Source: a virus. From it: a stretch of DNA of 64,000 nt. The stretch lies in IMG/VR virus record IMGVR_UViG_3300021197_001769; one strand, 5' to 3'. Positions within the stretch are counted from its first letter, which is position 1. Every line of letters begins with the position of its first letter. The position numbers and the translations under genes were made by a program. The notes under the pieces were generated by a model. It was not told the origin of the DNA and did no database searches. It worked only from the letters and a program-made list of their open reading frames with translations. Of the stretch, positions 14,049-62,570 are shown piece by piece.

Positions 14049-14393
14049 TTAATTAGCTACTATAAAGCCTCTTAATTCAATTATTGCATTAGGGCTAGTA
14101 CCTACTACAGTAAGAGATCCACCTCCTGCTGATCCAGTAAAAGGTAAACCTCCAAATTGAGATAGTAACCAGTTACCAGTTTCGAATACTTTACCGTCTA
14201 ATGTAACATCATTAGGTCCCATATTAATAACTGTCTCGATTCTATTAGGTTGGAATCTTTTAGTTTCACCAGTTTCTAATGTAAACAATAATGCATCTGA
14301 ATCGAATGCTGAAGCAGAATCAATATGCAATGTTACCCTTGCAGAGTTTTGATCTCTTGCTGTAATTCTTTTTGCTATTATAGTGTTAGCCAT
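14049..14393 (-). CDS. Hypothetical protein in head module, possibly virion
   Basis: Intact ORF with RBS; beta-rich; one DSD. Confidence 0.6.
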   Translation of the reverse strand: MANTIIAKRITARDQNSARVTLHIDSASAFDSDALLFTLETGETKRFQPNRIETVINMGPNDVTLDGKVFETGNWLLSQFGGLPFTGSAGGGSLTVVGTSPNAIIELRGFIVAN

Positions 14394-14402
14394 TTATATC
14401 TC

Positions 14403-15143
14403 CTAGTTTGATAAAGAAGCTAGTGATCTTGTACGACCTTTAATTCTTTTCTTTGTTATTTTAGCAATACGAGCTGCTTTCTTTTTCTTAGCAGCACCCA
14501 TAGCCTTTTTAGCTCTTTTAAGTTTAATTCCTAATCTTTTCATTTTAGCTTTTTGAGTACCGGTTTGAGGTAAGCATCTTCTACCTGCTAATCTCATACC
14601 TGGCATACACTTTTTCTTCTTAGTAATTGTGCCTTTAGATCTTTTAAAGATTACTCTAGCCATTTTTTCGTCAATTACAACTGTACCGTCTTCTTGCATT
14701 ACCTCTACATCATGAACTTCATAATCTTCTGCAAATAAAGCATCTTTAATTTTAAGATAATTTTCTATAGCATCATCATAGTAAGTTCTATCTTCGATAG
14801 CAAATTCTAAATCATACTCTTCCCCATCTTCCATAGGAACGAAGTCTAAATAAGTTTTAGGACATTGACACTCATCATCTGCTTCATGAGGATGACAACC
14901 ACAGTCATCATCATCTTCTTCATGTAAGTTAAGAGCAGCTTCTGCTTCGTCAAAGTCGTCAATGTCACCTTCTACTATTTCTTCATAGTCTAAGATAACA
15001 ACTTCTTCTTTAAACTCTTCAATTTGCTCAGGTGTAAAAATAGTCTCTTCTATTTCTACTCCTTGTCTTATCGAATCTAAGACGAGTTGTTTTTTCTCTT
15101 CGTAGATTCTACTCTTTAGGTTCTTCAGATTCATTTTTACCAT
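14403..15143 (-). CDS. Prohead core protein, gp68-like
   Basis: Acidic N-half and very basic C-half with C..G......C; gp68 position. Confidence 0.6.
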   Translation of the reverse strand: MVKMNLKNLKSRIYEEKKQLVLDSIRQGVEIEETIFTPEQIEEFKEEVVILDYEEIVEGDIDDFDEAEAALNLHEEDDDDCGCHPHEADDECQCPKTYLDFVPMEDGEEYDLEFAIEDRTYYDDAIENYLKIKDALFAEDYEVHDVEVMQEDGTVVIDEKMARVIFKRSKGTITKKKKCMPGMRLAGRRCLPQTGTQKAKMKRLGIKLKRAKKAMGAAKKKKAARIAKITKKRIKGRTRSLASLSN

Positions 15144-15282
15144 CTTCTATAAATTTAGAGGCCAACTCCTGCTTCATTTGCTGGAGATGTCCAATTACTT
15201 TAGTATCTATATGGGATTTTACATCTTTAACAAATGTATCTTGATCTCCCATATTCGTTGTAAAATCAAATTTATTTTCCAT
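15109..15282 (-). CDS. Small prohead core protein, gp67-like
   Basis: Size and position; KVIGHLQQMKQELASKF; start MENKF just after a late-promoter variant at 15285-15292. Confidence 0.5.
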   Translation of the reverse strand: MENKFDFTTNMGDQDTFVKDVKSHIDTKVIGHLQQMKQELASKFIEDGKNESEEPKE

Positions 15283-15290
15283 AATATTTA

Positions 15291-16289
15291 TTAACCCCAC
15301 ATTATAGAGTCTAGCTCTAATTGGTTATTGTTTTTAAGTTCATCTCTAAGAGATGTCTCTTCTTCGCGTCCTTCGTTATACAACGTTTGGCCATCTAATT
15401 GAACACCACCTGGTAGTTCAGTATTTTGATATTTCTTAAGATTAGCACCCCATTGCATTTTAGCTAAAGCAACAGCGTATGTTTTTAACCAACTGTCTTG
15501 ATATACTTGTCCGTATATTTCTGGGTCAGTTACTACATAACATTCAGCTAACATATAATGAGTCTTCTTACCACCATTAGCAGCAGTCTTCAATCTATTC
15601 ATATCTGTATCGAAATACAATCTATTTTTATGTTTATTAAATCTTATGGCAGGAGATGTATTCAATAAGAACTCTATATGTTCTACAAAAGTCTTTTGAA
15701 TATAATAAGAAGTTAATCCTCCTGCTCCCATACCACCATAAAAGAAATCAAAATTATTTAAAAAGTATTGGTACTCGTAATTATACATTCCCGCTTGACT
15801 AAAAGAGTCTACTTTAGCTATTCTAGTAACCGAAATTATATCATTAGGTACTTTAACTCCTATTTGACCAGCACTAGTAAGAATTATATTTTGATCTTCT
15901 AGTACTTGCTCTTCTAAAGTGAAGTATCTTCTAAATCCATCATGCGCAGAATCTGAATCAGTCTTTATATAAACTCTTTGACCTGTAACGTTATTCAGTT
16001 TTTTCATTACTCTAGAACCTAATCTATAGGTACTATATTTGTCAGAGTCAAAATCTTCTGCTCCTAAGTCTTGGTGTCTTCTATTATTTCTTTTAATAAA
16101 GTTACTATCAATCTTTATAACTCTATAAGTTCTTTCAGCGCCATCGTAATGGTACTCTTGATACAGCTGAACAGCATCATCAATACAATCTTCTAATTGT
16201 ACATCAGCAATCTCTACGTTAATGACAGGTGCACCCAGTCTACGTAAAATATAATCTGCTAGTTCTTGTTTACTGTTCGGTAACGGCAT
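15291..16289 (-). CDS. gp13: Neck protein gp13, relocated downstream of the portal gene
   Basis: ELADYILRRLGAPVINVEI...YHYDGAE...WLKTYAVALAKMQWGANLKKY...LPGGVQLDG. Confidence 0.93.
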   Translation of the reverse strand: MPLPNSKQELADYILRRLGAPVINVEIADVQLEDCIDDAVQLYQEYHYDGAERTYRVIKIDSNFIKRNNRRHQDLGAEDFDSDKYSTYRLGSRVMKKLNNVTGQRVYIKTDSDSAHDGFRRYFTLEEQVLEDQNIILTSAGQIGVKVPNDIISVTRIAKVDSFSQAGMYNYEYQYFLNNFDFFYGGMGAGGLTSYYIQKTFVEHIEFLLNTSPAIRFNKHKNRLYFDTDMNRLKTAANGGKKTHYMLAECYVVTDPEIYGQVYQDSWLKTYAVALAKMQWGANLKKYQNTELPGGVQLDGQTLYNEGREEETSLRDELKNNNQLELDSIMWG

Positions 16290-17889: not shown

Positions 17890-17935
17890 TCTGCTTCCTC
17901 ATAATATACTAGTCTAATAATACTGTTATAGTCGA

Positions 17936-18496: not shown

Positions 18497-18497
18497 G

Positions 18498-20696
18498 TTA
18501 CGCTCCTGCTACTTCTTCAAAACTAACGCCGGTTCTAACTGCGACGAAGTTAAGAGTTATAAAGTTAATTGAACGATTAGGTTTGATATAGATGTCAGCT
18601 ACGAATCTATTACCATCAATAACCGCCGGTGTATTATTTGAAGTATCACAAACTACTTTAAAGTCTTGGCATCCTCTTCTTGCTTTTATATCTTGTAAGA
18701 AAGGCTCTACTGCTGCTACAAAATTAGCTCTTGTAAAGTCGTCGTTGAATTCAAAGAGTTGAAACTTGGCTGCAGTTGCAATTGCTTTTTCTAATACAAT
18801 GAATAATCTTCTTACATTAATACGATCAAAAGCTGAAGGTTTACTTAGTGCAGTTTTATCACCAAATAGTAATGTACCTTGACCTCTTTGAGTAACCATA
18901 GGGTTGACTCTTTCTCTATACAGAACATCTCTGTCTGCTTGTTGAGGATTGAAAGATAATTTAACTACATTGGATACAAAACCTCTATTGAAACCTGCTG
19001 GTGACCACCAAGCATCATTAGTGAATTCTGACCTTGCGGTGATACCTGCTGTATCACCTGCCATCGCTGACCAGAAAAATTGATCATTATATCTGTCATA
19101 CATTCTCTTCCAAGCAGAATCGAACATTGCATACGATGTAGAGTTAAAGTCAGAAAAATAAGTAGTAACTTTAGCTGCAGTTGGATTAACTACTGCTGCA
19201 TCATAAGATGGTGAGCAAAATACTACACAATCTTTTCTTACATTTGCAATATTATCTATTGCATACTTTTGTACTACTTTTTGTTTTGTCGCGTTTGAAG
19301 AACCGCTACCGAAACTATTACCTAAAATTAATGAGATATCAATTTCTTCCGGATCTTTAAACTTATCAAGACCTGCTGTATAATCACCTGCATCAACATC
19401 ATCTCCAGAAGAACCACCATTAAGTGTGTATCTTCTTACACCTGTTAGAGACATGTTAGTAACAAATCTTACGAAGTCTTTTTCATTTGCTTTGTAAATA
19501 TCAATACCTATTGCAGTTACTTGTTCAGAATTTGATACTGCTGCGGTAGAATTACCGTTAGCTAGATCTTCTGTAAGTACGTAAATCCACTGTGATGTAT
19601 TATTAATTATATTTTTATAATAATTTTGACCACCATCAGCTGTTTTACCGTTACCTGCTTTAGATAAACCTTCAAATGTTTCAAGTACTTCATATGCAGA
19701 TCCTGTGATAGTAGTATCAGAGGTGTATACAATAACATGTACTTCATCTTGAACATCTGAGTCAAAGTTGTCTACAGACCATTGTGACCTACCTGGTCTC
19801 TTTTCAAACAATGTAGCTGCTTTAATTGCAGCTGAACCAGAGCCAACAATAGGTGTATTGTTAAAGTCTGAATCGTTCATGCCAGCATCAATAAGAGCTA
19901 CTCCTATACCGTTACCTCTATGACCAGGGAACCTAGCATAGACTGAACCATTGATAAGAGTACTTTCTTCAGCATTAAAGTCATCTAAATTATTAAGAAC
20001 TGCTGCTGTAGCAAAACCAGAACCTTGTTCAGCTTCTTGATAAGGAGTAAACGTTAGTCCTACTGTAGTTACAGCTGAAGGAGCAGTTGCAGCGGCTGGT
20101 GTTGTAAAAGTAATTGCTGTATCACCTGCCAATGCTGCGGCACCGTCGGAGTCTATCGCGGCGTCTGTGGCATTAGCTTCAGTATTGATAGCATTCTTTA
20201 AGATGTTTGCAACGTCACCAATGGATGAAATATCGTCGGAATCAGTAACTGTAAATTGAAATGCAGATGCGCTTGTAACTGCTCCAATGGTTACTGTCTG
20301 AGTTTTATGTCCCTCACCATCTGAATCGGGAAAAGTAAAAGCTGGGGTACCAGTAATACTAATTGTTGTCTTTCCTGACTCTAATGTAACGAACTCTGAT
20401 GCAGCGTTTCTAGCGCCATCAGTTAAAATTCTTACTATTTGAATTGCATTTGCGTATGATAAAAAGTTCGCAGCTGTGTACCAATCGCTTCTAGTACTTT
20501 CACCTGCTACTGTTGATACTTTTGGGTTACCAAACTTTGCTATTAACTGTTCTTCACTTGAAATAAGTGTAGGTTCTAGACAAGGTCCCCATTCAAAATT
20601 TCCAGCAAATGCACCTGTTGTAGTTGCTACAGCAGGTATAATATTGGTAAGGTCTTTTTCTTTTACCTGTACACCTGGACTAACTTGGAAGGCCAT
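18498..20696 (-). CDS. gp18: Tail sheath protein gp18
   Basis: SPGVQVKEKDLT, WWSPAGFNRG, FGDKT, FDRINVRRLF, FEFNDDFTR, KPNRSINFITLNF. Confidence 0.98.
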   Translation of the reverse strand: MAFQVSPGVQVKEKDLTNIIPAVATTTGAFAGNFEWGPCLEPTLISSEEQLIAKFGNPKVSTVAGESTRSDWYTAANFLSYANAIQIVRILTDGARNAASEFVTLESGKTTISITGTPAFTFPDSDGEGHKTQTVTIGAVTSASAFQFTVTDSDDISSIGDVANILKNAINTEANATDAAIDSDGAAALAGDTAITFTTPAAATAPSAVTTVGLTFTPYQEAEQGSGFATAAVLNNLDDFNAEESTLINGSVYARFPGHRGNGIGVALIDAGMNDSDFNNTPIVGSGSAAIKAATLFEKRPGRSQWSVDNFDSDVQDEVHVIVYTSDTTITGSAYEVLETFEGLSKAGNGKTADGGQNYYKNIINNTSQWIYVLTEDLANGNSTAAVSNSEQVTAIGIDIYKANEKDFVRFVTNMSLTGVRRYTLNGGSSGDDVDAGDYTAGLDKFKDPEEIDISLILGNSFGSGSSNATKQKVVQKYAIDNIANVRKDCVVFCSPSYDAAVVNPTAAKVTTYFSDFNSTSYAMFDSAWKRMYDRYNDQFFWSAMAGDTAGITARSEFTNDAWWSPAGFNRGFVSNVVKLSFNPQQADRDVLYRERVNPMVTQRGQGTLLFGDKTALSKPSAFDRINVRRLFIVLEKAIATAAKFQLFEFNDDFTRANFVAAVEPFLQDIKARRGCQDFKVVCDTSNNTPAVIDGNRFVADIYIKPNRSINFITLNFVAVRTGVSFEEVAGA

Positions 20697-20728
20697 TTTT
20701 TGACTCCTTTATTTGTAAATTTACAATA

Positions 20729-20736: not shown

Positions 20737-20746
20737 ATCTATAGAT

Positions 20747-22609
20747 CTACGAACCTGTCGGTAACGTATTAGTAAATCGAGGATTATCCCCGCCATGACT
20801 ATTTATTGTAAACGTTAATTTATATTCAGCTAAGCTGAACTTATCTTTGAATGCATATTCAATAACATTCGAATCTCTATACAATAATGTATTAAAGAAA
20901 CCTTTAGCTACAGGATGTGATTCTAGGTTGTAAGCTAGCACCCTTAATATATTTGCATCTGATGAACCTTTAGCAAATATCATAGTATTAGAAGACACTG
21001 TAGATCCGTCTCCGGATACAACTCTCCAAGTAACACTCATTTGAGCTTCTAATATCTGATCACTATCAGTTGAGAACGTAACTGTCGCTAAGTTTTCAGA
21101 ATCAGTTGGTACAGGAGTTGCAGGTGTTGAGCTTGAAGTAACTCCTATTAAAGTATTCAATTTAGCTATATCACCTTGCATAGTACCTATTAATGTACCC
21201 AATGCTTGAATAGCTATTTCATCTGAATCTCTATCAGATCTTAATAAATTTATTTTATTGGTAAGTACATTTATATCTGAATCGCTAGCGCCGCCTGATG
21301 AACCTACTTTACTAGTAAAATGTACAAAATCTGAATCCATATCTGATTTTATTCTACCAGCTAAAGACTGAATATATGTCATTCTAGTAGTTTCACTATC
21401 AATGTCAGCTCTTAATCCATCTACTTCATTTCTCAATGTAGCAGCTACTGCAAGATCAGAGTCACCAATACCTACAATACTTCTTATCTTATCTTGAAAT
21501 AAATTATGATCACTATCTAATCTAGCTCTTACTTGAGACTGCAATAAACTTAACTTAGTACCTTCAGAGTCTAATCTTAATCTCATTTGAGATTGAAGTA
21601 CTGATACTTTAGCTGCCTCTGAATCTAATCTTAATCTTATGTCAGATACTCTACTATCTAAAGCAGCTCTATCTGAATCTATTCTAGTATGAATTATATC
21701 TTGAGCAGTTTTTAATGCTTGTACTACTAATGAATCTGAATCTAGTCTACTGGTTAAATTAGTTTTTAACAACTGTACTTTAGTTGACTCAGAATCTAAT
21801 CTTACGTGAGCAGCATCAGCTCTTGCTTGTGCAGCTGCAGTCGAAGTACTTAGTGCTTGTAATGCTGCATCGTCTGAATCTAATCTTGATTTTACTTGAG
21901 TAGCTAACGCTTGTATAAAACTTGAATCTGAATCTAATCTAGCAGTAATAGTATTGACATTATTAGATAGATCAGCTACAACTTTTAAGTCAGAGTCGGA
22001 AGGTATTTCTAATACTCTTAAACCGTTCTCTCTTATTATTTCTATAACTTGATCACTATCAAATCCGGCAGAACCTACACCTAGTATACCAATATATTGA
22101 CCACCACTAATGTATATGCTTTTGTCTGTAAAGTCTTTACCATTAGGTAAGTTTTCACCCATAAAGTGTAACACACCAGACTGATAATCAAAAAACCATT
22201 CATCGTCATTACCAGAACCAGCAGCAAATAGCTGATTAGATATTCCAGCTGCATTATCACTGTCACCTGAATCGTGTAGATATACTTTTACTTGATATGT
22301 TGAACCAAATTCAGGTGGTATCCAATCTGTGACACCAGTAATCCAAGTTCTATTAGCACTCGCTGTACCATCTGCTACAGCTTCAACTAAATTGCTTGAA
22401 CTATATACTTCTACAACTCCTGTAGTACTTGCAGGTAAAGTAGCTGGTATAAGATTAGCTTGTACTAGAGTTTTATCACCTCTGTTTAATAATGGAGATG
22501 CAATAGATTCGTTAGTTGGACCTTTTAATGAATCAGAGTCAGTTCTAGCAACACCGAAACCTAATTTCTTAAAAAGAAAGTCTACCTTTGCTGTTAAACT
22601 AATTGCCAT
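20747..22609 (-). CDS. Virion fibre/whisker-like protein with RLDSD coiled-coil repeats
   Basis: N-terminal globular domain (WFFDYQSGVLHF); central helical repeats; about 14 DSD plus several DSE. Confidence 0.7.
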   Translation of the reverse strand: MAISLTAKVDFLFKKLGFGVARTDSDSLKGPTNESIASPLLNRGDKTLVQANLIPATLPASTTGVVEVYSSSNLVEAVADGTASANRTWITGVTDWIPPEFGSTYQVKVYLHDSGDSDNAAGISNQLFAAGSGNDDEWFFDYQSGVLHFMGENLPNGKDFTDKSIYISGGQYIGILGVGSAGFDSDQVIEIIRENGLRVLEIPSDSDLKVVADLSNNVNTITARLDSDSSFIQALATQVKSRLDSDDAALQALSTSTAAAQARADAAHVRLDSESTKVQLLKTNLTSRLDSDSLVVQALKTAQDIIHTRIDSDRAALDSRVSDIRLRLDSEAAKVSVLQSQMRLRLDSEGTKLSLLQSQVRARLDSDHNLFQDKIRSIVGIGDSDLAVAATLRNEVDGLRADIDSETTRMTYIQSLAGRIKSDMDSDFVHFTSKVGSSGGASDSDINVLTNKINLLRSDRDSDEIAIQALGTLIGTMQGDIAKLNTLIGVTSSSTPATPVPTDSENLATVTFSTDSDQILEAQMSVTWRVVSGDGSTVSSNTMIFAKGSSDANILRVLAYNLESHPVAKGFFNTLLYRDSNVIEYAFKDKFSLAEYKLTFTINSHGGDNPRFTNTLPTGS

Positions 22610-25600
22610 TAACTTATACTCAAACTAGTTACTGAATCACCTGATGCTAATCCTATTCTTAAAAGAATATTATTATTAGTAGCATTGGTTGCGTTTTCTG
22701 TACCGAGCGTGAAAGTAAAAGAGCCATTCAGCGCTCCTGTACCTACAATATCACCTCCAGTAGATGCACATCCATTAGAACCGTTTCCTCCTGATCCTGT
22801 GTTAGCGCCTGGTACACCAGCACCTGCATATTGACCTCCACAATCTAACCATCCATTTAATGAGGATGATGAATCAATTACTGTGCCTGGTGCTGCTATA
22901 AACATACCTTCTATACCAGAAGACGAAACAATATTAACTGTAAAGTTAGCCATTGCTGTTCTTCTAAACGCCATTGTAAAATATTGAGTTCCTGTATCAC
23001 CTGATCTGTTTGGTCCAGGAGGAACATATGTACTGTAGTTAGTAGTATCGTGTTTTAATACCCCTAATCTAATTGTAGCTTCTTTAGTGCCTTGAACTCC
23101 ACTATCTGAATCTTCTACGAATATATCTGTATTGTAATAATTATATGAACCACCTCTCAACGCAGGGGTATCAGTAGTAGCTGATTTTAAAGCTCCTGAT
23201 CTAACTCCGTTGTCGGTAAAACCTGAACCTAATCCACCAGCTACACTTATAGCAGTTTCGTTTATTCCAGATTGAGAAGCTGTATGCACGTTTATATTAG
23301 TTGTATTTTCTACATAAGAACTAGTACCGTTAGTATTACTTGCTCTCACTTTAATTCTATCTACTGTTCTAACTGATGAAGATGTAATAGCAACACTTAA
23401 GGTAGCTAATGTATAAGCAGAACTAACACCTGTATTAGCAATAGGTATGCCTCCGGATAACATTGTTGATGAACCATCTACATTAGCGTAAGTATAATTT
23501 GTATTAACTGTACCAGCAGAACTAGTACTTTCTTGATTAGTTCCAGAATCTATTTCAACAGGAGAGGATGTATCATTATAAGCTTGTCCTACAAAATTTG
23601 ATATTTGAATACCTGCAACGTTTATTGTAGGGCTTCCAGAATTAAAATAAGGCACTCCTGAAATGTATCTATAGGTTCCTGAATTATTAACTGATACAGT
23701 ACCTGTACTTGATACTGTCGGAGCCGCTGAAACTGTATCGTCTCTTAATATGTGAACAGTAGATGTTGAACCTGTCTGCGAATGTTTTATTAATTGTGCA
23801 TTAAGTCCTAAAGTATAACCTGATAAAGATCTAGCTATTTTAGCATCAAATGTCTGATAAAAATTGGATGGATATGTAGAAGAACTAATAGTATCATGAG
23901 CATCAGCTTGTTGAGTAACTTGAAGTGAACCAGCAGCTCCAGTTTCTCCTGATGTTGTAGTAAATGATATAGTACCGTCACTATCACCATTTCTTATACA
24001 TGTTACTTCACCTGCAGCTCCATTATAAGCATTATTAATTGTATTAGTATCTATAATTCCAGTAGTATATCTTCTTGCAGTTGTACTATTAAGAGATGTT
24101 CCTGCTGCTAATGTAGACATAGTACCTGTATTATCAGTGAAACCTGAAGCTAATTTAGGATTAGTACCGTGAGCTGAATCTGATAAAGTTAAAGTAAAAG
24201 TAGATAAGTTACTAGGAGCAGCTGGTACTGCGTTAATTGTAAATGTGACACTTTCTTTATCTGATTGAGCTACACTTCCAGGTGAACCAGAAGCAAATAA
24301 TTGAGAAGCATAACTACCAGTTGACTCTCCAGTATAGTCATGATCAATAGTAGCTCCTAATGAACCTGGAGATGATCCATCTTCAGTTAATGAATCTGAA
24401 TCTCCATCGGCCCAACTATAAGTTAAATTAGTTGCATTTTGTGATGTGTTAGTAGCTCTTACTAATGCTCTATTTGCACCGTTTAAGTCTACAAAGTCAT
24501 ATATGTCTCTACTATTATCTCCTGATCTATCAGAAACAGTTACTGCAGTTGCAGCATAGTTGACTCTTAAATCAGGTCTAACTGTAATTTCAAAAGGATC
24601 TGATTCGAAAGGAGATGAATCATGATTAGAAGTTATTTGTAATTTACCAGTAAAAGTAACTGTATGTCCATTAGCTTGATCTGAATCAGGTAATGCATAA
24701 GTATGAGAAACTGCACTAGCTCCTCTATCACCTGATGAACCTGTTCCTGCATTTACTGTTGTATTAGATGTACCGTCACCCCATACATAAACATATCTAC
24801 TACCAAATGTTGCAAAGTTACCAACACCTGAACCTGAATTGTTAGTTGCTTGTATAACATGACCTGATGTAGCTTCTTCATTTACACCATCACTATCATT
24901 TATACTTACAGATGGTGTATGTGTATCTAAAACATTAAAGAAATTATCTGAGTCAGCTGCAGGTATATCAGTTGGGTTAGCTGTAGTGTGTGAATTTAAT
25001 GTGAGAGAAATATTAAATCTTCTATCTTCTTCAACTACTGTATCAAATGTATAAGGTAATCTACTACCGCCGTTATTAATAGAACCACCAGGTAATCTAT
25101 CAGAATCTATAGCATGCATTAAATCGCTATCACCAAAATTAAAAACATAACCTGCGATTGCATTTGAAGTATTAGTAGTATTATTTTGTAAATAAATTGT
25201 ATCGCCATCATCCCATTGTGTAATAGGAGAACCACCAGACGATGCAGCATATATTGCGAATGAAACAGCTGGTGTAGCTGTAAAAACTGTTACGTAGTTA
25301 CTTCTTTCTTTAACTGAAAATGAACCAGCACCTTCTCCAGAAGAGTTTCTAGCTATTACTCTTACAGTAAAAGGAGAACCTACGTTTGAATTGTATGTAT
25401 GAGATGGTGTACTATCAGAACTGTCTGAATCTATGTTACCGTCACCCCAATGAATATCATATCTATTAGGGTTACCATCTGCACTTGTTGTTAATGTAGT
25501 AGTGAAACCAGCACCACCGATTAAGTTGTCACCAGTAAAATCTAAATTAGAAACAGCAGTATTTCTAATTACGTTTCTAGTAGCTTCATTTAATTTATCG

Positions 25601-26813: not shown

Positions 26814-26823
26814 ATTATGCACT

Positions 26824-28702: not shown

Positions 28703-28710
28703 TATTTATA
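28703..28710 (-). promoter_or_regulatory. T4-type late promoter TATAAATA
   Basis: Exact match overlapping the stop codon of 28706..30298. Confidence 0.7.
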
Positions 28711-43327: not shown

Positions 43328-43328
43328 A

Positions 43329-52083: not shown

Positions 52084-53477
52084 TCCATATCTGGGTATAT
52101 TTTATCAAAATCTTGACCTCTAGTTTCTGCTACAGTATAACACCACTCAGCAGTCTCAGGTAATCTTTCTGACCAATCTTCAGCATCCATAAAGTTTAAA
52201 AGACCTTCTAATCTTTTAATACCATATTCACTATTACGCCATTGTTCATAAGATACATTGTGCTCTTTAACACCTGTACATTTTTGCCAATTTTGTTCTA
52301 GCCAAGGATACAAATCTTGTTCCCATTTAAGTCTGACTTCTTCTTTAAAAAAAGTAGGTAAAGCTTTAACGTTCAACTGAGGGGGCCAATAAGCTAAGTG
52401 ACAACTAAATATACCTGCACCAGAAGGCCACTGATTAAGTAGTTTAAACTCACTGTTTATTTTCCACTTAATAAATTCTGGTACGTAAAAATAATTAATT
52501 GCCATTCCTGTAAAAGCAGTAGTAAGCATTAAATTACCATGAGGGTAATTATCTAATACATGCATCTGCTTTTCTAAATGTTTAAACTCTGCAGGGTATC
52601 TAACAAAGTTTAATCTGTCTTCAATATCATCTATACTAAAATGATATATTACTTTCTTGAAATGTTTCCATAAATCGAATAGATCATCTCTCCATTCTAA
52701 ACCATTAGAGTTATATCTTACTTCCATTTGAGAAGCATAACCTTCTCTTATACATTTTTCTAATAGTTCATAATGCTCATCATGTATTAGAGGTTCACCA
52801 CCTGCCCAATACAATTGTTTAATATGAGGTATTTGAGTATATAATTCTGGAAAAAAATCTTTATTCTTTTTATGCCAGTTATATGAACCACCGGACCAAG
52901 CTAACTTACCTGACTCTTTTTCCCAAGCCATAGTACTTTTAAGTTTTTTGTTTTTTAAATTAGACCATATTTTTTTATGGTCAGGTACCCAGTTAGATGA
53001 ATCATGCGGTGAGCACATAACACATGCTAATTGACATTTAGATCCTAATCTTAAGTCTACGTATCTGACTTGAGCAGGTACTTCACCAGTTTCAGTATCG
53101 TAACCTTGTAGTATAGATTCAATACCTTCATCTCTAATCCACTTATCAGTTTCCCATTGTCTTTTAGATCTATGTCCAGCTTCTTCTTCCTTATAACATT
53201 TAAGACATGATGCTGGTTTTTCACCTCTCATCATAGTCTTTCTAGTTTCTTTCATATAGGTATTATTCCAAGCTTCAAGTAAACCAGTAGTTGCTAGGTT
53301 AGCAGGTTTACCGTCTTCTCTTCTTAATACACCTACTTCTGAAGCTGTTTTATTTGTACTATCTGCATTCTGTACTCCAGATGCATTAGCAGTACAACAG
53401 ACACGCATATGTCCATTAGGTCTAGTACTTACATGCATCCATGGAAGTGCACAAAACGTTTCTGAAGGATAAGCCAT
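52056..53477 (-). CDS. Radical SAM protein with N-terminal Twitch/SPASM-like domain
   Basis: CALPW...VCC...CLKC, CQLACVMC, AGGEP. Confidence 0.92.
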   Translation of the reverse strand: MAYPSETFCALPWMHVSTRPNGHMRVCCTANASGVQNADSTNKTASEVGVLRREDGKPANLATTGLLEAWNNTYMKETRKTMMRGEKPASCLKCYKEEEAGHRSKRQWETDKWIRDEGIESILQGYDTETGEVPAQVRYVDLRLGSKCQLACVMCSPHDSSNWVPDHKKIWSNLKNKKLKSTMAWEKESGKLAWSGGSYNWHKKNKDFFPELYTQIPHIKQLYWAGGEPLIHDEHYELLEKCIREGYASQMEVRYNSNGLEWRDDLFDLWKHFKKVIYHFSIDDIEDRLNFVRYPAEFKHLEKQMHVLDNYPHGNLMLTTAFTGMAINYFYVPEFIKWKINSEFKLLNQWPSGAGIFSCHLAYWPPQLNVKALPTFFKEEVRLKWEQDLYPWLEQNWQKCTGVKEHNVSYEQWRNSEYGIKRLEGLLNFMDAEDWSERLPETAEWCYTVAETRGQDFDKIYPDMDWLKCYLKK

Positions 53478-55041: not shown

Positions 55042-56352
55042 TTACCCGTCTGAGTCAAATCCTACCATAGAAAATACAGTGCTTCCACTTACATTTTTTA
55101 TTCTTAATCGTTTAGTTTTAGTAAACATATCGTTTTGGAACTCAAATCGAGAACCAGCTTTTAGTACACCATTACTAACGTCAAGTGTTCCTTTCATAGT
55201 ATGAATTGAATCAGAATCGAAAGTTTTTGTTTCAGATACAGTACCAAAGTTTTGAGTTATAAGAAAACTACCAGAAGTAACTTGTCTCCATTCAGCAAAG
55301 GTAGATCCGCCAGATCCATCTGAATCAATTAAGACAACTCCTTGAGAGATTCTATCTGAATCTGACATGGCTCTAGCTTTAGCTTGAGCGGCAGTAGAGT
55401 TCACTACTGACATATCTAGCCAATATAAATGACTAGGCTCTGAATCATTTTCAGCACCTGGAGGCTGTATCCACAAATCACCATTTAACCCGGGCTTAGA
55501 CGAGGTTGCTGCAACTGCAGGAGGGGTGTTGGATGTTGTAGGTATTCTAGCTGTTAAATCTAGAATAGAGGGATTATTTTGATCTATAGAAACTCTAAAT
55601 TGATCTGTCCCTTCGTTTATTCCACCTGTCGCTAATGTTAAATTAGTAACGAAGTATGAATTCTCTGAACCAGAAACGAACTTACGTAATGGTACTGACG
55701 TTGAGGTTATTGATTTAACTGAACCTGCCGTCTTATATGTTTTTATAAAACTTGTTGGTGTTATTGTACCTTGTTTTGCGAAAATATCGTTGTCTGAATC
55801 TGATGATTGTATCAATCTTGATACTGTTGTTCTTGTATGATCTATGTATCTGACAAAATCAGAATCTAAATCATAACTTAATGCTTGATCTGAGTCATCT
55901 GTAAAAACTAATACTTGACTAGTTTTACCAAACTCTCCTAATGCTGTACCGTTGATAACACTAGTAGATGGGTGGTTAGCAGCAACGTGAGTTACAAAAT
56001 CATTAACCCAATTACCCACTGTAGTATCATCACTGTCTATAAAAATAAAAGACTTAGTACCATTATTAAAATTAATACCCACTTTTTGTCCTATGTAAGC
56101 AGAACTTATAGGAGAAAAATCTAATAAAATACCCGCATTTTGCTGAAACGTTTCTATTTTATCTGTATAGTCTATATCTTGAAAAGTATTCTTTTTTGTA
56201 TATAATTTACTTGTAGAAAGGTTTATTGCTATTTCACCTTCTAGCAAATCAGTAGCTAGAGGAGCTCCGTCACCGTTCACAGTAGCACTATAAGTCCTTC
56301 TATGTTGGTAAAAACCTCTACTAAAATCTGAATCTACATTAGGGTTAGCCAT
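55042..56352 (-). CDS. Tail-fibre-like virion protein, DSD-rich
   Basis: P...LLEGEIAINL...LYTK fibre N-terminal motif; NGDLW; C-terminal LRIKN module; about 9 DSD. Confidence 0.7.
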   Translation of the reverse strand: MANPNVDSDFSRGFYQHRRTYSATVNGDGAPLATDLLEGEIAINLSTSKLYTKKNTFQDIDYTDKIETFQQNAGILLDFSPISSAYIGQKVGINFNNGTKSFIFIDSDDTTVGNWVNDFVTHVAANHPSTSVINGTALGEFGKTSQVLVFTDDSDQALSYDLDSDFVRYIDHTRTTVSRLIQSSDSDNDIFAKQGTITPTSFIKTYKTAGSVKSITSTSVPLRKFVSGSENSYFVTNLTLATGGINEGTDQFRVSIDQNNPSILDLTARIPTTSNTPPAVAATSSKPGLNGDLWIQPPGAENDSEPSHLYWLDMSVVNSTAAQAKARAMSDSDRISQGVVLIDSDGSGGSTFAEWRQVTSGSFLITQNFGTVSETKTFDSDSIHTMKGTLDVSNGVLKAGSRFEFQNDMFTKTKRLRIKNVSGSTVFSMVGFDSDG

Positions 56353-57776
56353 TAACCTACACTTCCTTTAACAAATAATTCTATCCTACCTGAAAATGGG
56401 TAGTTAGAAATTAATATCAATATTCCATCTTTAGTTACTATTGATGGTATATTTATTTCATTGTACCAATTGCCTATGCTTTGACTAACACCAACAGGGT
56501 ATGTTGCGTTACCAGCCGCTATTTGAGCTCTTCTATACTTTCTAGCCATAATAGTATCTGAGTCTCCTACATTGACAGTAACAACGTTATCATCACCATC
56601 ACCTGTAATATTTTCATTGTTGTTAGTTACATAACCACTAAAAAAATCTTGCAATTTATTTCCAAATTCATCTGAATCATAACCTATTTCTTGGAATACT
56701 TTGAATACAGGAGCGCCATCTGTAAGAGTTATTCTTTGACCGTTAGATGACATTATAGGTAACAAGTATTGGTTTTGTAATATAACTGAATCTGATTCAT
56801 TTAAATCAGCTTTATTCCATTGAAACCAATCTCTTGAATGAAACTTATCGTGAGTCTGTTTTATATTAGTATCACCAGAGTCAGTAATAGTAGTTTGTTT
56901 ATACACCCATCCAGTATTTGCACCTAGATATGTACACTCAACTTCAATATGTTTTGTATTAAACGTAATTGGTGATACTGGAATATTACTTCTATAACCT
57001 GTTGTACCTGCAAATGGTATTTTTTCATAACCGGTAATTCCAACTATATCTGAATTAGTAATCTGTGTTTGTCTTAATGAAGCATTAGTACCTGATGCAG
57101 CTCCTGGAACTGTTATTCTACTATGGTTAACAGATGGGAAGCTATCAGAGTCAGCAGCTAGTCCTGCTTCAGGTGTATTAGTAATCCATTCATTTATTTG
57201 AGATACACTATTCCATTCATAAGGTGTAGCCCATAATGACATAGGAGTTGATTCAGATATATGACCTAAACTATCTCTTATGATTACTCTATCACCAGCT
57301 TTAGCTAGTGGTAATACTATATGAAAATAATCTGAATCTAATTGAGTTAAGTCAGGAGTTATTTGCTCTCCTCTTGACATGAAATACCATTCTTTACTTA
57401 AGTATATAGATGGTATAGTTGAACTTGAAGGTGAATAAATTACACCGTCTGAATCTTTTACAAAATAACCTTCACCATTATGGAAAAAATCATATGAACC
57501 ATCTGCTCTTTCAGTAGCACCATCTGAATCTTGCTTAAATGAAACTCTCTTAAATTTAGTAGCTGGATGTAACTCACCTACTTTATATTCACCTTCTGAA
57601 TAGGCTTTTCTATATCCATAGTTCTTTCCATCAGGATCATTACCAATTGGGTTGTCACCGTAGTTAGCATAGATGTCAGCGAAAAGATTATTAATCTTCA
57701 TACCGCCTTTTCTAGCTGTATCTCCTGTCCCCGAATCTGGGGCTGTTCCTAAATTTATTAAATCTTTACTTGACAT
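56352..57776 (-). CDS. Baseplate gp9/gp10-like virion protein
   Basis: INLGTAPDSGTGDTARKGGMKINNLFADIY N-terminal motif typical of T4 gp9/gp10; LP...GD.V.I.D; about 6 DSD. Confidence 0.7.
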   Translation of the reverse strand: MSSKDLINLGTAPDSGTGDTARKGGMKINNLFADIYANYGDNPIGNDPDGKNYGYRKAYSEGEYKVGELHPATKFKRVSFKQDSDGATERADGSYDFFHNGEGYFVKDSDGVIYSPSSSTIPSIYLSKEWYFMSRGEQITPDLTQLDSDYFHIVLPLAKAGDRVIIRDSLGHISESTPMSLWATPYEWNSVSQINEWITNTPEAGLAADSDSFPSVNHSRITVPGAASGTNASLRQTQITNSDIVGITGYEKIPFAGTTGYRSNIPVSPITFNTKHIEVECTYLGANTGWVYKQTTITDSGDTNIKQTHDKFHSRDWFQWNKADLNESDSVILQNQYLLPIMSSNGQRITLTDGAPVFKVFQEIGYDSDEFGNKLQDFFSGYVTNNNENITGDGDDNVVTVNVGDSDTIMARKYRRAQIAAGNATYPVGVSQSIGNWYNEINIPSIVTKDGILILISNYPFSGRIELFVKGSVG

Positions 57777-57788
57777 ATCTTATTTATT

Positions 57789-58781
57789 CTAATTCTCTGG
57801 CAAGTTTCTAACGATCTTTATGATGTTACCATCGCTATCACTTAAGTTTAATATTGTCGGACTTCTATCAGAATCATTACTATATCTAACATCTGAATCG
57901 TTTACTACATTTCTTCTTTTTCTAAGCTTCTTTGTAGCACCATCAGAATCAAAATCAAGATCTGAATCATAAAGTCTAAACGTTACTCCATCTGAGTCTA
58001 ATACATAAGGTCCTTTTGAGTCAGAATCATAGCCTCTGCTATCACCTGATAGAACTGCGTAACCAACTTCAGTACCTGCTTGAGTAGAAGCTCGAGACAT
58101 CTTATTTATTGGCACTCCAGTTGGTGGTACTGAGACAATAGCTCTAGAATCAACAATTACTGATGTTGCTGCTACTGGTCCGTGTAACCATATCTTTGTT
58201 TGGAATTCCATTGTCCATTCTATAACTCTTCTATCACCTATTTCACCTGTATAATCATCAGCCCAAGTAGTAGATAACAACGTAAAAGTCTGATCATATG
58301 AATTAGTTGGTGTAGGAGTCAATGCACTTGCATCTTGAGGAAAATGTCTTACCTTTACTGTATAAGCAGGAGTAAAGAATGGTAGTATTTGTTCGATTAT
58401 TTGCCAACCATCATTAAGAGTTTTTGTAGCACAGTATAAAGTAAAATCTAAATTGTAAGGAGTAGGTACATTTATTCTTTGTCTAGGGTCTGTTAAACCA
58501 TCAGGTTCTCTTAACATAGTTTGTCTGTTAGTTAATTTTCTAGATTGATCATAATTCATAGCTACTATTTCATATGACATTCTAGGTAATAACTTTTCAA
58601 ACATTTCTTCAGAAGGCTGAAATTGTTTTTGAGCATCTAGCCATTTTTGACGAGGACCATAGCTAATAGGTACTGGTAAGAGTTTACCATCTCTTCTTTT
58701 AATTACTAAGTTGTTAAAAAGACTACCGAATACTGCTACTGAAGTTTTAATAGTCTCATTGTAAAAATGTGTACCTATCAT
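57789..58781 (-). CDS. gp15: Tail sheath terminator gp15 with DSD-rich C-terminal extension
   Basis: HFYNETI...FGSLFNN...VPISYGPRQKW...LPRMSYE...QIIEQILPFF.P. Confidence 0.93.
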   Translation of the reverse strand: MIGTHFYNETIKTSVAVFGSLFNNLVIKRRDGKLLPVPISYGPRQKWLDAQKQFQPSEEMFEKLLPRMSYEIVAMNYDQSRKLTNRQTMLREPDGLTDPRQRINVPTPYNLDFTLYCATKTLNDGWQIIEQILPFFTPAYTVKVRHFPQDASALTPTPTNSYDQTFTLLSTTWADDYTGEIGDRRVIEWTMEFQTKIWLHGPVAATSVIVDSRAIVSVPPTGVPINKMSRASTQAGTEVGYAVLSGDSRGYDSDSKGPYVLDSDGVTFRLYDSDLDFDSDGATKKLRKRRNVVNDSDVRYSNDSDRSPTILNLSDSDGNIIKIVRNLPEN

Positions 58782-59815
58782 ATATCATCTAAATCTAAAT
58801 TATTAATTATACCTGGACTATGATGAGCTGATTTACCATAGTCTTCTACAATAACATCACTCTTCTCGGTTGCATTACCATCGTCATCATAGATAACTCT
58901 TTGCTGAGCTCTCTGTTCTATCTCTCTATTCCTACCATAAGAATCAGTTATTGAATCTGAATCTCTTACTATATTAAGTGCTTTAGTATCACTGTCTATA
59001 AAATTAACACCTGCTGAAGCTCTTTGTATCTTTTCATTAGTAGTAGTCTGTTCTTTACCAGTAACTGTATTGTATGTAATAGCAGTTGGTGAAAATCCAA
59101 GATCCTCTCCAGAAAGTTCGAATAGTTTACATCTTAATTTATATTGATAGTTATCACCTACTTGGAAGAAAGCACCATCATGGAATGTAGTTACTCGAGT
59201 TATTTCAAATATTTTAGGAACGTATTGATTTTTATTCTGAGCTGATCTACCAAAAGGAATAACAACTAAGTCACCCTCTAAAGGTCTTTGTCTATTATAA
59301 AACGCTGAGTCACTATCAGATAGATCACTGTCATAATCTTTATGTTTATTATTAAAGTTATTAATAGCAACAGTCATAATAACTTCTTCTCTAAATTCAA
59401 CTCCGTAAGTAGTCATTACATCGCCTTCACCTTCGAAGCCGGCTGCTGCTAATAACATCATATCTATTTGGTAACCTGCATGAAACTTAGATTCAGGTCT
59501 TTCGTTGAATACTGAATCAGTATACTTAGAATGTCTAGGCATATATCTAACAGTTATACCATTAGTATTAATTGACTCTCTTACTAAATTTTGTACTAGT
59601 CTTTGTTCATTTGTTGAAAAGTTTGCTGATGAACCGAATTGGTTAATATAACCATCAATAAAAGTATTTTGAATAGCTGCTTTGTAGTTGTAATTTTCGT
59701 TTATAGTTCTTATATTTCTATTTTGACTAGCGCCAAAATCAGAATCATTATCTGTTTTTGTCAACTCTGTAGTAGTTGCAATTGTAAATCCTAGATAATT
59801 GTTTACTATAGCCAT
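58778..59815 (-). CDS. gp14: Neck protein gp14
   Basis: EQRLVQNLVRESI..G..V.Y.PR...GFEGEGDVMT.YG...RPLEGDL...FEI...FFQVG...Y.L.C.LF. Confidence 0.9.
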   Translation of the reverse strand: MAIVNNYLGFTIATTTELTKTDNDSDFGASQNRNIRTINENYNYKAAIQNTFIDGYINQFGSSANFSTNEQRLVQNLVRESINTNGITVRYMPRHSKYTDSVFNERPESKFHAGYQIDMMLLAAAGFEGEGDVMTTYGVEFREEVIMTVAINNFNNKHKDYDSDLSDSDSAFYNRQRPLEGDLVVIPFGRSAQNKNQYVPKIFEITRVTTFHDGAFFQVGDNYQYKLRCKLFELSGEDLGFSPTAITYNTVTGKEQTTTNEKIQRASAGVNFIDSDTKALNIVRDSDSITDSYGRNREIEQRAQQRVIYDDDGNATEKSDVIVEDYGKSAHHSPGIINNLDLDDI

Positions 59816-60546
59816 TACGCATAATACCCTGCGTCTCTTCCAGAAGTACTTTGTCTAACTGTTAGTTCTACTATTGCATCTTCAACAGTTTGAGCTTGTA
59901 TTCTTACGCTATTAGCCGCTCCCTGATTTAATTTTAAATATTCTGCATACATTTCTAATTGTTCAGCTCCAGTTTTCTCTGAAGAAGCAGTACCAGTTGA
60001 TAGTCTTGATAGTGCACTATCAAAATCAAATGTAATATTTTTAGCACTATTACTGTGCTCTAATGCAAACTTACTACCGTTATATTTTAGTAATGAACCT
60101 GCAGATATACTATAAACACCATTTGTTAAATTAAAGCTTGCACTTGTTATTTTATTAGTGTATACTGGAGTAGCATCAGGATTAAGTGTTAAAATACTCT
60201 CTGATAAAATAACTGTATCATTACTATTAGGGCTCAAAGCAGTAATTTCTGTATAAGTTTTTGCACCTAAAAATGTACCAGCAGATGATAAAGATGTTAT
60301 ATCTGCATTAACGTTAACATTAGTTCTATATGAAGCTTCAATAAAGTTATTAAGTTTTTGAAAAGCTGTTCTTAGAGGATCACCATCATTAGAGTTGGGA
60401 GACGTACCTGTGTTAACTCTTGTATTGGTATTTACAGTATAATCAGTTAATGGTATAACAGAATTACTATTAGCTGGATCAACAAGCGATGGCTTATTAA
60501 CAGAACTATTTTTACTTAGATAATCTGATAAGAGTGTATTAGCCAT
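59815..60546 (-). CDS. Virion protein with gp9/gp10-type GDPLR motif
   Basis: VNTGTSPNSNDGDPLRTAFQKLNN. Confidence 0.6.
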   Translation of the reverse strand: MANTLLSDYLSKNSSVNKPSLVDPANSNSVIPLTDYTVNTNTRVNTGTSPNSNDGDPLRTAFQKLNNFIEASYRTNVNVNADITSLSSAGTFLGAKTYTEITALSPNSNDTVILSESILTLNPDATPVYTNKITSASFNLTNGVYSISAGSLLKYNGSKFALEHSNSAKNITFDFDSALSRLSTGTASSEKTGAEQLEMYAEYLKLNQGAANSVRIQAQTVEDAIVELTVRQSTSGRDAGYYA

Positions 60547-60724
60547 TTTTCTCTAGTATCCTTTCTAACAAGTTTTCTATTCTATTTAATCTATATTCTA
60601 AATCGTTCAATCTTTTTTGTTCTTTACGTCTTTTATTAATAGTTGCTTTAAGAGACGGATCAGTATTAATAATAGCACCGCCTCTCTTTTCAAGATACGG
60701 ATGACCTTGTATATTTTTATGCAA
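60539..60724 (-). CDS. Small hypothetical protein
   Basis: GHPYL...GAIINTD followed by a coiled coil; from recollection, this type follows the large VrlC-like gene in T4-like phages. Confidence 0.65.
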   Translation of the reverse strand: MHKNIQGHPYLEKRGGAIINTDPSLKATINKRRKEQKRLNDLEYRLNRIENLLERILEKNG

Positions 60725-62570
60725 CTGCTAATATCCTTAAATTTTTAAGTCTAGGCACATATGCTTCGTTTTTAGTTTTCATTCTAACTCTAACTCTAAA
60801 CTCTTGAAAATCTTCTCCTACTGCATGTTCTGCTGAATATTCTTTAAAGTCTTCAGCACTATTAAACGCACCGTAATTTTTTTCACTTATAAATGTATTA
60901 AGTTTAAAATCTTCCCAATCTTGAGCATCTATATCTGCAGTATCACCTATACGTTTCACTTTAAATGCAATTTCAATTTCATTAGTAGGATTCATATCAG
61001 CTAAAAATTTAACTATTAAAGTATCAGCAGGTGTAGCTAATTCTGTAATCTTAGTAATGTAGTCTGCATGATCTTGTTTAGCTGCTGTAAGTGACGCAAT
61101 ATAAGAAGCTAACTTAGCTTGTATATTTGCATTGTCAGAATCTCCTTCTTCTAAAAAGTCAGAGTCATTAGCTCTTTTTGATTCAAAAATTGGATACTTA
61201 TTCTGTAGATCTGAATCATCAGGCTGCATTCCAGCTCTATTTCTTAGTAACTTAATTTTATTTACAACCCCTTGTGATGGAGATTCAACTGGTATTACAG
61301 GTGAGTATCTTTCATCAGCTGTGTTAAGTTCTAGTTGCATTTCAAATGATCTATTAGTAGAATTAACAGTAGATAAAATTGATTTAGGATTAGTAAAAGT
61401 TGTTACTTTATCTGTTTCAACATATGCATAAGCTTCATCTATACTACCTACAGCTTGATAACTTTCAGCTGAAGTATCTAAACCTAGTAGTTGACTTGAT
61501 ATAACGTTATCAATAGTACTACCAGTTGTAGTTTTAATCTTAGCATCCACTTTAGTAAAGAGATTGTTTATAGGATTAAGATTAGTGTATAGATAATCGT
61601 ACTGTAAGTTAGAACTCACTTTCATATTATAACCACCTGCATCTAAAGTTTCTCTTGCATTAGAAGCTACTTTTATAAAATAAGTATCTTGTGTAGCATA
61701 CAATACATCATGTGTATCTACAAAAGAACTTGATGCGGCGTCAGCTTGCGTATTAATATCAGTAACCGGAATACCTGCTATTTCAGATGCTCCGTTTGGT
61801 CCCTCAACTCCTGATACTACGACTTTTTGTCCTGATCCATACATTCCATGATTAGGATGCTTTATTAAAATATATGGTGAATGCTTAAAAGTTCTTATTG
61901 GTGTGCCGTTATTCACAGTACCAATATTAACTGCTAGTTTACTTAACTTAGATCTTAACTGTGCTGTAGCTACTCCAGTATTAAAACTAGCTCTATATAA
62001 TTTAAACTTTAAATCTTTATTAGGGTCCGGTATATAAACTCCACCATTTTCTGATGTAAAGAACGAACCACCTGAACCTCCTATACTAGGCGGCGAAGAT
62101 ATTAATCCACCTAATCCAGAAGTCAAGTCTGGCTTACCTATTTCAGCTGTCCATAAACTTGTAAGAGAAGATTGGGTTCTTACTACTATACAATATTCCT
62201 GAGCAGAAATCAACTTAACAGGTGAATTAAATCTAAAATTAGTTGGTGTCGATGCTACTGCTCTACCTGAACCGGTACCATCTGAATCAGATAAAAATTT
62301 GGAAGCGTATCCAACTACTATTTGTCCTGGTCTACCTTGTACTGTATTTCTAATTTCAACTCTAACTTGATTTTGGTTTGAGGATAAATCTACTACGTCA
62401 AAAAACAAATCAATAGCAGTGACAAAAGCTCCTTCTTTTATCTTAACATCGTTTTCGTAATCCTCACCACCAGAAGTATCAACTGGTCTACCGTCACCAT
62501 CAACACTAATTAATTTTTTTATGATAGCTGGTAACGTGAACGTTTGTGCTATTGCGCCTTTAACTGCCAT
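60717..62570 (-). CDS. Large virion structural protein (VrlC/DUF4815-like C-terminal part)
   Basis: AQTF...GAFVTAIDLFF...VEIR...G.P...F.F.SPV...EYCIVV...DLKFKLYRASF...YITK...VPRLKNLRILA. Confidence 0.75.
   Translation of the reverse strand: MAVKGAIAQTFTLPAIIKKLISVDGDGRPVDTSGGEDYENDVKIKEGAFVTAIDLFFDVVDLSSNQNQVRVEIRNTVQGRPGQIVVGYASKFLSDSDGTGSGRAVASTPTNFRFNSPVKLISAQEYCIVVRTQSSLTSLWTAEIGKPDLTSGLGGLISSPPSIGGSGGSFFTSENGGVYIPDPNKDLKFKLYRASFNTGVATAQLRSKLSKLAVNIGTVNNGTPIRTFKHSPYILIKHPNHGMYGSGQKVVVSGVEGPNGASEIAGIPVTDINTQADAASSSFVDTHDVLYATQDTYFIKVASNARETLDAGGYNMKVSSNLQYDYLYTNLNPINNLFTKVDAKIKTTTGSTIDNVISSQLLGLDTSAESYQAVGSIDEAYAYVETDKVTTFTNPKSILSTVNSTNRSFEMQLELNTADERYSPVIPVESPSQGVVNKIKLLRNRAGMQPDDSDLQNKYPIFESKRANDSDFLEEGDSDNANIQAKLASYIASLTAAKQDHADYITKITELATPADTLIVKFLADMNPTNEIEIAFKVKRIGDTADIDAQDWEDFKLNTFISEKNYGAFNSAEDFKEYSAEHAVGEDFQEFRVRVRMKTKNEAYVPRLKNLRILAVA

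Follow-up and report, generated by a model that had tools for sequence, protein, structure and literature searches.

The 64,000-nucleotide stretch IMGVR_UViG_3300021197_001769 from IMG/VR (hereafter the window) covers the morphogenesis region of a T4-like marine myophage whose G+C content is ~33%. Its tail-exterior proteins are marked by the tripeptide Asp-Ser-Asp (DSD), which is a real, clade-specific sequence feature. The reading that we favour, to which a probability of about 0.4 is assigned, is that D-S-[D/E] is a sequon for an enzyme acting in trans, most likely one that O-glycosylates the serine.

In-frame DSD occurs 97 times in the window, compared with 8.5 expected from per-protein composition, and 12 proteins reach p ≤ 0.0005 (2000 composition-preserving shuffles per protein). 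No other tripeptide deviates as strongly: DSD has z = 30 when all are scanned, and PCC comes next (z = 12). Tail, neck, baseplate and fibre proteins hold 95 of the 97 sites; in the five fibre proteins 54 are observed for 2.85 expected, and in the proteins of tail, neck and baseplate outside the fibres 42 for 2.12. The motif is absent from the capsid protein, the scaffold, the protease, the tube, the terminase, and all enzymes of a 21-kb island in the window. A single DSD is situated at the C-terminal end of the portal, and one is found in the enzyme-like open reading frame (ORF) 1-1122. At the DNA level, the pattern GAY(TCN/AGY)GAY is present 97 times in the coding frame and only 2 times in the other frames of the coding strand. 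TCN codons account for 81% of DSD serines compared with 74% in the background, and AGY codons for 19% compared with 26% (pooled over three contigs). Ser and Asp codon usage within DSD thus resembles that in the rest of the same proteins, which indicates that selection acts on the protein.

These results bear on an earlier note on this DNA, made from the letters alone. Its per-gene DSD counts (14, 14, 14, 9, 9, 7, 6, 5, 5, 4, 3, 2, 2, 1, 1) were reproduced exactly, and its approximate total of 95 becomes 97, with ORF 1-1122 adding one. The note was right that composition does not account for the motif, that selection is at the protein level, and that enzymes and head proteins lack it, ORF 1-1122 being the lone enzyme-like exception. 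Its description of the motif as virion-wide has to be given up: it is missing from the major capsid protein (MCP), the scaffold, the prohead protease and the tail tube, and belongs to the tail exterior.

It is very improbable that the motif is a by-product of composition, of fibre repeat expansion, or of a signal in the DNA, for instance GANTC, the CcrM site of alphaproteobacteria. GANTC arises at every GAY-TCN codon pair, and the site is indeed 2-2.5-fold enriched in the tail genes (18498-30756, 102 vs 40; 54065-62570, 49 vs 26); furthermore, ~20 sites stem from one repeat family. Composition and chance are nevertheless ruled out by the per-protein shuffles and the all-tripeptide scan, and a fibre-repeat artefact by the 20-fold enrichment in non-fibre proteins. 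A DNA-level signal, whether GANTC/CcrM or a 9-bp element, was rejected as well: AGY codons, which do not form GANTC, are used near background, Glu-Ser-Asp is unenriched although it also makes GANTC, and the 9-mers are diverse and confined to one frame. The GANTC excess in the tail genes arises from the Asp-Ser(TCN) codon pairs. We also note that GANTC is ~2-fold depleted in the enzyme island (33047-54040, 32 vs 60).

The minus strand carries nearly all genes of the window, and the morphogenesis genes are arranged as follows.

gp46/47-like genes, first in the gene order of the window, followed by the head genes
9784-11268, MCP
11328-13355, scaffold
13381-14034, prohead protease
14049..16289, minus strand, neck-side genes for a 114-aa protein (1 DSD), a 246-aa protein (0 DSD) and a gp13-like protein
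15291-16289, minus strand, the gp13-like protein, 2 DSD
portal and tube, between the gp13-like gene and the sheath in the gene order
18498..20696, minus strand, tail sheath (gp18-like), 5 DSD at residues 124-312
20747-30756, minus strand, six fibre genes, given singly in the next six lines
20747..22609, minus strand, fibre protein, 14 DSD and 5 DSE, mostly in R-L-D-S-D coiled-coil repeats spaced by 18-21 residues
22609..26112, minus strand, large fibre or baseplate-associated protein of 1167 aa, 14 DSD
26139..26729, minus strand, small fibre protein, 3 DSD
27100..28638, minus strand, fibre protein, 9 DSD, all within the first 215 residues and 0 in the distal part
28706..30298, minus strand, fibre protein, 14 DSD
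30334..30756, minus strand, 140-aa protein adjoining the large terminase subunit (TerL), 2 DSD
30805-32640, TerL, with the small subunit (TerS) after it
33047-54040, enzyme island of 21 kb between TerS and the baseplate genes
55042..57776, minus strand, two baseplate proteins, one of 436 aa (9 DSD) and one gp9/gp10-like (6 DSD; Pfam T4_gp9_10_N)
57789..59815, minus strand, gp15 tail-sheath stabiliser and gp14-like neck protein (Pfam PF16724, PF11649)
60717..62570, minus strand, baseplate protein (gp6/VrlC-related), 4 DSD

The specificity of the motif was examined in the pooled tail proteins of the window and of the contigs G002 (IMGVR_UViG_3300020409_001194) and G004, which together contain 354 DSD compared with 19.2 expected. 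Ser alone is enriched at the middle position of D-x-D (18.5-fold), and no other residue is meaningfully so, Thr included. The first position of x-S-D is restricted to Asp, Glu-Ser-Asp being unenriched. The third position of D-S-x is enriched for Asp (18.5-fold) and Glu (9.8-fold) and not for small or hydrophobic residues. The motif is therefore D-S-[D/E]. The copies are isolated rather than tandem, with DSDSD at 0 and SDSD at 7 among the 97 window sites.

The sites occur in variable or added segments. The Pfam domains of the sheath cover residues 27-90 and 434-718, and all 5 DSD lie in the insertion between them, where 2 sites are kept in G002 and the contig G003. All 7 DSD of gp15 are found in the C-terminal 80 residues, a C-terminal extension, and the gp14-like protein has 5; alignments of gp15 and gp14 display conserved sites alongside lineage-specific ones. 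In the protein encoded at 22609..26112, DSD is located in the N-terminal coiled coil and in a region where PKD is matched weakly and below the cut-off. The fibre protein encoded at 20747..22609 weakly resembles the coiled coil of reovirus sigma-1. Most DSD columns of the fibre family 28706-30298 are invariant across 11 orthologues of 52-81% identity, and the orthologues of the 140-aa protein in the contig G005 and in a TARA scaffold (L231) have 2 DSD each as well. When window proteins are aligned with their G002 orthologues (34-64% identical), DS[DE] is present in both at 18 of 33 aligned sites, compared with 18% identity for other tripeptides, and 24 of the 58 sites of G002 fall in segments inserted with respect to the window. 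The sites are thus conserved above background, and they turn over by insertion and deletion in the manner of sequons. The earlier note had pointed to the occurrence in unrelated folds and to some DSE; both are borne out here, and so is the preference for variable or inserted segments. The repeated independent origin that the note proposed does not hold for ~20 of the 97 sites, which belong to the repeated R-L-D-S-D coiled-coil unit. As a separate observation, DSD stops before the C-terminal part in the fibres 27100-28638 (after residue 215) and 28706-30298 (after residue 380); this part is beta-rich in the model of the latter, and is presumed to be the distal, receptor-binding end in both fibres.

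The distribution of the trait was followed in 80 IMG/VR loci found by TerL. Loci with TerL identity of at least 66% are enriched (e.g. 107 vs 6, 42 vs 2.6, 31 vs 2.3), whereas those with 50-57% identity are not. Among the contigs, observed and expected DSD numbers are 139 and 14.1 in G002, 59 and 6.9 in G003, 124 and 7.6 in G004, and 31 and 3.0 in G005, compared with 20 and 14.2 in the control contig G006. The fragment of the 186,872-bp TARA scaffold L231 has 48 DSD across 7 tail proteins and 0 in 13 enzymes. All strongly positive loci form one clade in the TerL tree; L076 is the only weak positive outside it (5 vs 1.1). Outside the clade lie 28 of the 29 scorable negatives, and the one inside has only enzymes in its flanks. 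The trait thus characterises a single clade in TerL, that of uncultured pelagimyophage-like phages with probably SAR11-like alphaproteobacteria as hosts. Among named phages, Pelagibacter phage Mosig and Prochlorococcus phage P-SSM2 come closest, sharing ~74-75% nucleotide identity, and this only within the portal gene. TerL identity exceeds 60% in none of the isolates of the phage collection, and a tblastn search of the same collection with the fibre protein gave no match. Nine marine T4-like genomes or contigs (Mosig, G006-G011, G013, G014) are without DSD enrichment, Mosig having 4 compared with 10.0 expected over 100 kb, and other marine T4-like genomes show no enrichment of the dipeptide DS.

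According to the favoured reading, one marine T4-like lineage would have spread the D-S-[D/E] tag across the exposed parts of its tail machine, namely the sheath insertion domains, neck proteins, the C-terminal tail of gp15, baseplate proteins and fibre shafts. A trans-acting enzyme would act on tail proteins that have just been synthesised and modify the serine in the middle of the tag, with O-glycosylation as the favoured chemistry. The outcome would be a densely modified tail exterior, with the capsid, the tail tube and the phage enzymes left untagged. Several properties of the motif argue for such a reader. First, the strict and asymmetric residue specificity is of the kind that enzymes impose. 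Second, the same tripeptide is found in at least two incompatible local structures, coiled-coil helices and turns or loops, which fits recognition on unfolded chains better than a shared three-dimensional site. Third, the motif is distributed over ~15 unrelated proteins of one assembly pathway in one clade, a pattern that a reader acting in trans with a single origin would give. Fourth, the sites combine conservation with turnover, and selection is at the protein level. Among possible readers, an enzyme that acts on the Ser is the most economical. The existence of a reader, its nature as an enzyme and its transfer of a sugar are all inferred.

O-glycosylation is favoured because of a bacterial precedent and because plausible glycosyltransferase machinery of the GT-A type is located in the morphogenesis module, where the phage encodes GT-A glycosyltransferase-like proteins (cytoplasmic). 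SdgB of Staphylococcus aureus O-GlcNAcylates the Ser of a minimal DSD peptide (PMC8561734). The SdgB/SdgA Ser-Asp system resembles the present case in that the acceptor Ser has Asp on both sides and the targets are surface-displayed. It differs in that the staphylococcal targets are long tandem SD repeats of one family, whereas isolated tripeptides in ~15 unrelated tail proteins are found here. Furthermore, the fold of SdgB is GT-B and includes an insertion domain, whereas the phage candidates are small GT-A proteins; no family hit to an SdgB-type GT-B (GT4) was obtained among the island proteins of the window.

The general O-glycosylation sequon of Bacteroidota, D-(S/T)-(A/I/L/V/M/T), is used in the periplasm. 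It shares with the present motif the length of three residues, the leading Asp, the central hydroxyl residue, and the occurrence in many unrelated proteins. The analogy that the earlier note drew to it fails at the third residue, which is small or hydrophobic there and D or E here; in addition, Thr is not accepted here (DTD is unenriched), and phage tails assemble in the cytoplasm. Virus-encoded virion glycosylation in chloroviruses and mycobacteriophages is similar in that viral glycosyltransferase genes would decorate structural proteins. In contrast to the phages described here, where the head is untouched, those systems target the capsid (and also the tail tube in mycobacteriophages), and to our knowledge no defined tripeptide sequon of such density has been reported for them.

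The island, which contains the GT-A genes, and its related genes outside are composed as follows.

33047-33769, desaturase-like (Pfam), in the island, with a second copy outside at 62571-63377
34345-35019 and 37956-38423, PF05118 Asp/Asn hydroxylase-like (Pfam), in the island, with a third at 5543-6346 outside
38399..41539, minus strand, cassette of three GT-A-like paralogues, a methyltransferase-like gene, an FeS-assembly gene and a 138-aa ORF
38399-38968, 38941-39504 and 40814-41539, minus strand, the GT-A-like paralogues
39815-40441, minus strand, methyltransferase-like, from language-model neighbours only
41527..53477, minus strand, eight radical S-adenosylmethionine (SAM) genes, five of them with an N-terminal SPASM hit, with kinase-like and QueC-like genes (Pfam)
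whole island, other Pfam hits, one TauD gene, with one FeS-assembly protein, one RIO-like mini-kinase and one QueC-like gene in all

The product of 40814-41539 has no Pfam hit. Its AlphaFold2 (AF2) model (pLDDT 91.8) has a GT-A fold, with Foldseek probability 1.00 to LgtC, glycogenin, GlyE and UGGT (TM 0.54-0.63), and D90-L91-D92 (DLD) is invariant in 42 sequences. The products of 38399-38968 and 38941-39504 are short paralogues of it, having KYGPEY and DxD motifs in common. A short-chain dehydrogenase/epimerase gene lies in the same island as the GT-A genes of G002. The cassette of the window is a possible candidate writer, although not one specific to DSD phages.

Several observations weigh against the sequon reading, and they concern the writer, the avoidance of the motif, and the coils. 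No enzyme family tracks the DSD trait. The GT-A/methyltransferase cassette occurs in seven DSD-negative contigs (G007-G011, G013 and G014), which leaves it unsupported as a DSD-specific writer; moreover, the window GT-A is 42-52% identical to those of DSD-negative phages and only 22% to those of the DSD-positive G002 and G003. Both the Asp hydroxylase and the desaturase genes are present in DSD-negative Mosig and hence do not serve as clade markers. A cytoplasmic enzyme would also predict avoidance of DSD in non-tail proteins; these contain 10 DSD compared with 16-19 expected, and those of further loci 11 compared with ~13.6, a weak and inconclusive deficit. Lastly, helical coiled coils contain about one third of the sites. 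There, the second Asp can be read as a core 'd' residue and the R-x-D before it resembles an interchain salt-bridge motif, which suggests a structural role for the coil sites as they are modelled. The absence of a co-varying writer and the credible structural reading of the coil-type sites are the reasons for placing the probability of the sequon reading at the value given above.

Two other writers were considered and set aside. The earlier note linked the motif to the adjacent enzyme cluster, and the link is not sustained, since each enzyme set is also found in phages without DSD enrichment. The radical-SAM island in particular was rejected because its presence and absence in relatives do not match the trait: it is missing at the syntenic site of G002 and G003, where DSD is strong, and G010 (IMGVR_UViG_3300017748_000002) has radical-SAM homologues of 50-69% identity, a GT-A of 52% and a methyltransferase of 46%, with DSD at merely 21 compared with 12.8 expected. 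Radical-SAM homologues are carried by G007-G010. The co-occurrence with DSD that a radical SAM/SPASM maturase of the kind acting on ribosomally synthesised and post-translationally modified peptides (RiPPs) would have is accordingly not seen in G002, G003 and G010. KpsS/KpsC-like Kdo transferases were likewise rejected, the family being found in DSD-negative G006 and not in G002-G005.

A modification of the flanking Asp instead of the Ser is of low probability. It could proceed through beta-hydroxylation by the PF05118 paralogues or through O-methylation leading to aspartimide/isoaspartate at the Asp-Ser bond, and such chemistry could create siderophore-like alpha-hydroxy-carboxylate iron chelators. 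The three PF05118 proteins of the window, the homologues of the family in G002 and G003, and the atlas neighbours of 39815-40441, which include protein-isoaspartate methyltransferase-like clusters at low score, are consistent with this chemistry. On the other hand, PF05118 is found in DSD-negative Mosig and the methyltransferase in DSD-negative G007, G008 and G010. The EGF-type consensus C-x-D/N-x4-F/Y-x-C-x-C is not matched by the DSD sites, Cys is present within 10 residues at 2 of the 97 sites, and five DSD-rich proteins are without any Cys. The obligatory Ser would also be left unexplained.

An explanation that needs no modification at all is a serious rival, of lower probability than the sequon reading and of higher probability than Asp chemistry. 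The motif would be intrinsic, serving as a cation-binding site (Ca2+, Mg2+ or Fe3+ from seawater) or as a structural element. Its two carboxylates and the Ser hydroxyl would bind a cation and rigidify the fibre coils through polar core layers, and the exposed turns of the tail would become charged, for stability or adsorption. The coil sites allow a credible structural reading. The polar layer of the fibre repeat recurs every 18-21 residues inside predicted continuous helices, and the heptad reading places L(-1) at 'a' and the second Asp at 'd'. In the AF2 monomer model of 28706-30298 (pLDDT 57), 11 of 14 sites lie inside long helices, and a helix N-cap motif was on this low-confidence model rejected for the coil sites. 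Arg occupies position -2 at 20 of the 97 sites, in accordance with R-x-D as the interchain salt-bridge motif of trimeric coiled coils (PMC13580157). The coils of trimeric autotransporter adhesins may be comparable to the fibre repeats, which read as R-x-D followed by a polar core 'd' at regular intervals in predicted long helices. This motif covers at most ~20-30 coil-type sites, however, and accounts neither for the obligatory Ser nor for the sheath, neck and baseplate loops; moreover, the known ion-holding layers consist of Asn and hold anions. The invariance of most coil DSD columns in the 11 orthologues and the failure to find a clade-specific writer among the enzyme families compared also speak for an intrinsic role.

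Outside the coils, the motif is typically found in loops or in the arrangement strand-DSDG-strand, DSDG being present at 14 sites between strand-like hydrophobic stretches. The acidic D-x-D, often with Gly next to it, resembles the DxDxDG calcium loop, although the middle residue is free in that loop and fixed as Ser here, and the full pattern fits just 1 of the 97 sites. Metal sites usually tolerate a varied middle residue and Glu or Asn ligands, whereas Ser is obligatory here and Glu is excluded from position 1. A shared geometry is also unlikely, because side chains at i and i+2 diverge in a helix and lie on the same side in a strand. Finally, cations of seawater reach all marine phages, yet nine others are unenriched.

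The tag may instead be read by a partner that is not an enzyme, such as a tail-assembly chaperone, a decoration protein that covers the tail, or a surface on which retracted fibres dock. We regard this as improbable. It obeys the same logic of one reader for many unrelated targets in one clade, the motif occurs along the pathway of tail assembly alone, head proteins lacking it, and a partner needs no modifying enzyme, in agreement with none co-varying. A candidate binder was not identified, however, copies inside coiled-coil cores would be inaccessible once assembled, and active sites of enzymes more typically impose a strict Ser followed by an acidic residue.

Further features of the island and of the relatives were noted alongside. 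The island (33047-54040) corresponds to G010 52967-79407 with 41-69% protein identity, although TerL of G010 is only 44% identical. Because the divergent G010 shares the island and the closer G002 and G003 lack its radical-SAM part, the island looks, from these comparisons, to have been horizontally exchanged between divergent T4-like lineages. The five radical SAM proteins encoded at 45604-53477 have the SPASM hit N-terminal, before the core, in reverse of the usual order. PCC is found 5 times in the window compared with 0.16 expected, and is also strongly enriched in other phage contigs with homologous island genes, e.g. G012 (13 vs 0.3). In G010-like phages, DSD is weakly enriched in gp15 and in large proteins of baseplate and fibres, and the fibre/baseplate proteins of G010 (79826-83116 and neighbours) are mildly enriched in Asp-Ser-Ala/Ser (DSA 36 vs 11.2). 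Asn-Ser-Thr is mildly enriched in fibre/baseplate proteins of G009 (66052-96994, 51 vs 19.8) and of L180 (30 vs 5.7). Single proteins of 365-375 aa in L168 (5798-6892) and L176 (635-1759) have 15-17 Tyr-Thr-Gly compared with <1 expected; they sit near GT-A gene homologues and may represent a different repeat or tag system. G002 14546-20243 encodes CsgF and CsgG of curli secretion, a FecR-domain protein and a CHASE2-adenylate/guanylate cyclase, and CsgF/CsgG curli genes are reported to be widespread in pelagimyophages (PMC7029224). The same survey of pelagimyophages describes radical-SAM cassettes and a core Asp/Asn hydroxylase, with the DSD motif unmentioned (PMC7029224).

Full-text literature searches gave no mention of the DSD motif in phages. 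Cells use glycosylation sequons and kinase sites as short linear motifs by which one reader recognises many unrelated proteins, and we know of no such one-reader motif described for phage virions. If the sequon reading holds, D-S-[D/E] would be the first defined sequon for the modification of bacteriophage structural proteins, limited to the tail. T4 has ~138 sheath subunits per virion, and on T4 copy numbers the modified D-S-[D/E] serines of each virion would number of the order of a thousand. The wider proposition that an abundant ocean phage clade writes a dense post-translational code on its tail exterior and not on its head, with the writer encoded by phage or host, is put forward tentatively and with slightly more doubt than the sequon itself. 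The radical-SAM island amid the morphogenesis genes needs another explanation. Independently of its chemistry, DSD is a simple sequence marker that sorts tail-exterior proteins in the otherwise unannotated genomes of the clade. If the motif is modified, the tail surface of a widespread marine phage group would differ chemically from what its genes lead one to expect, and adsorption, host range, stability, and the interplay of the particles with metals and organic matter of seawater would be affected.

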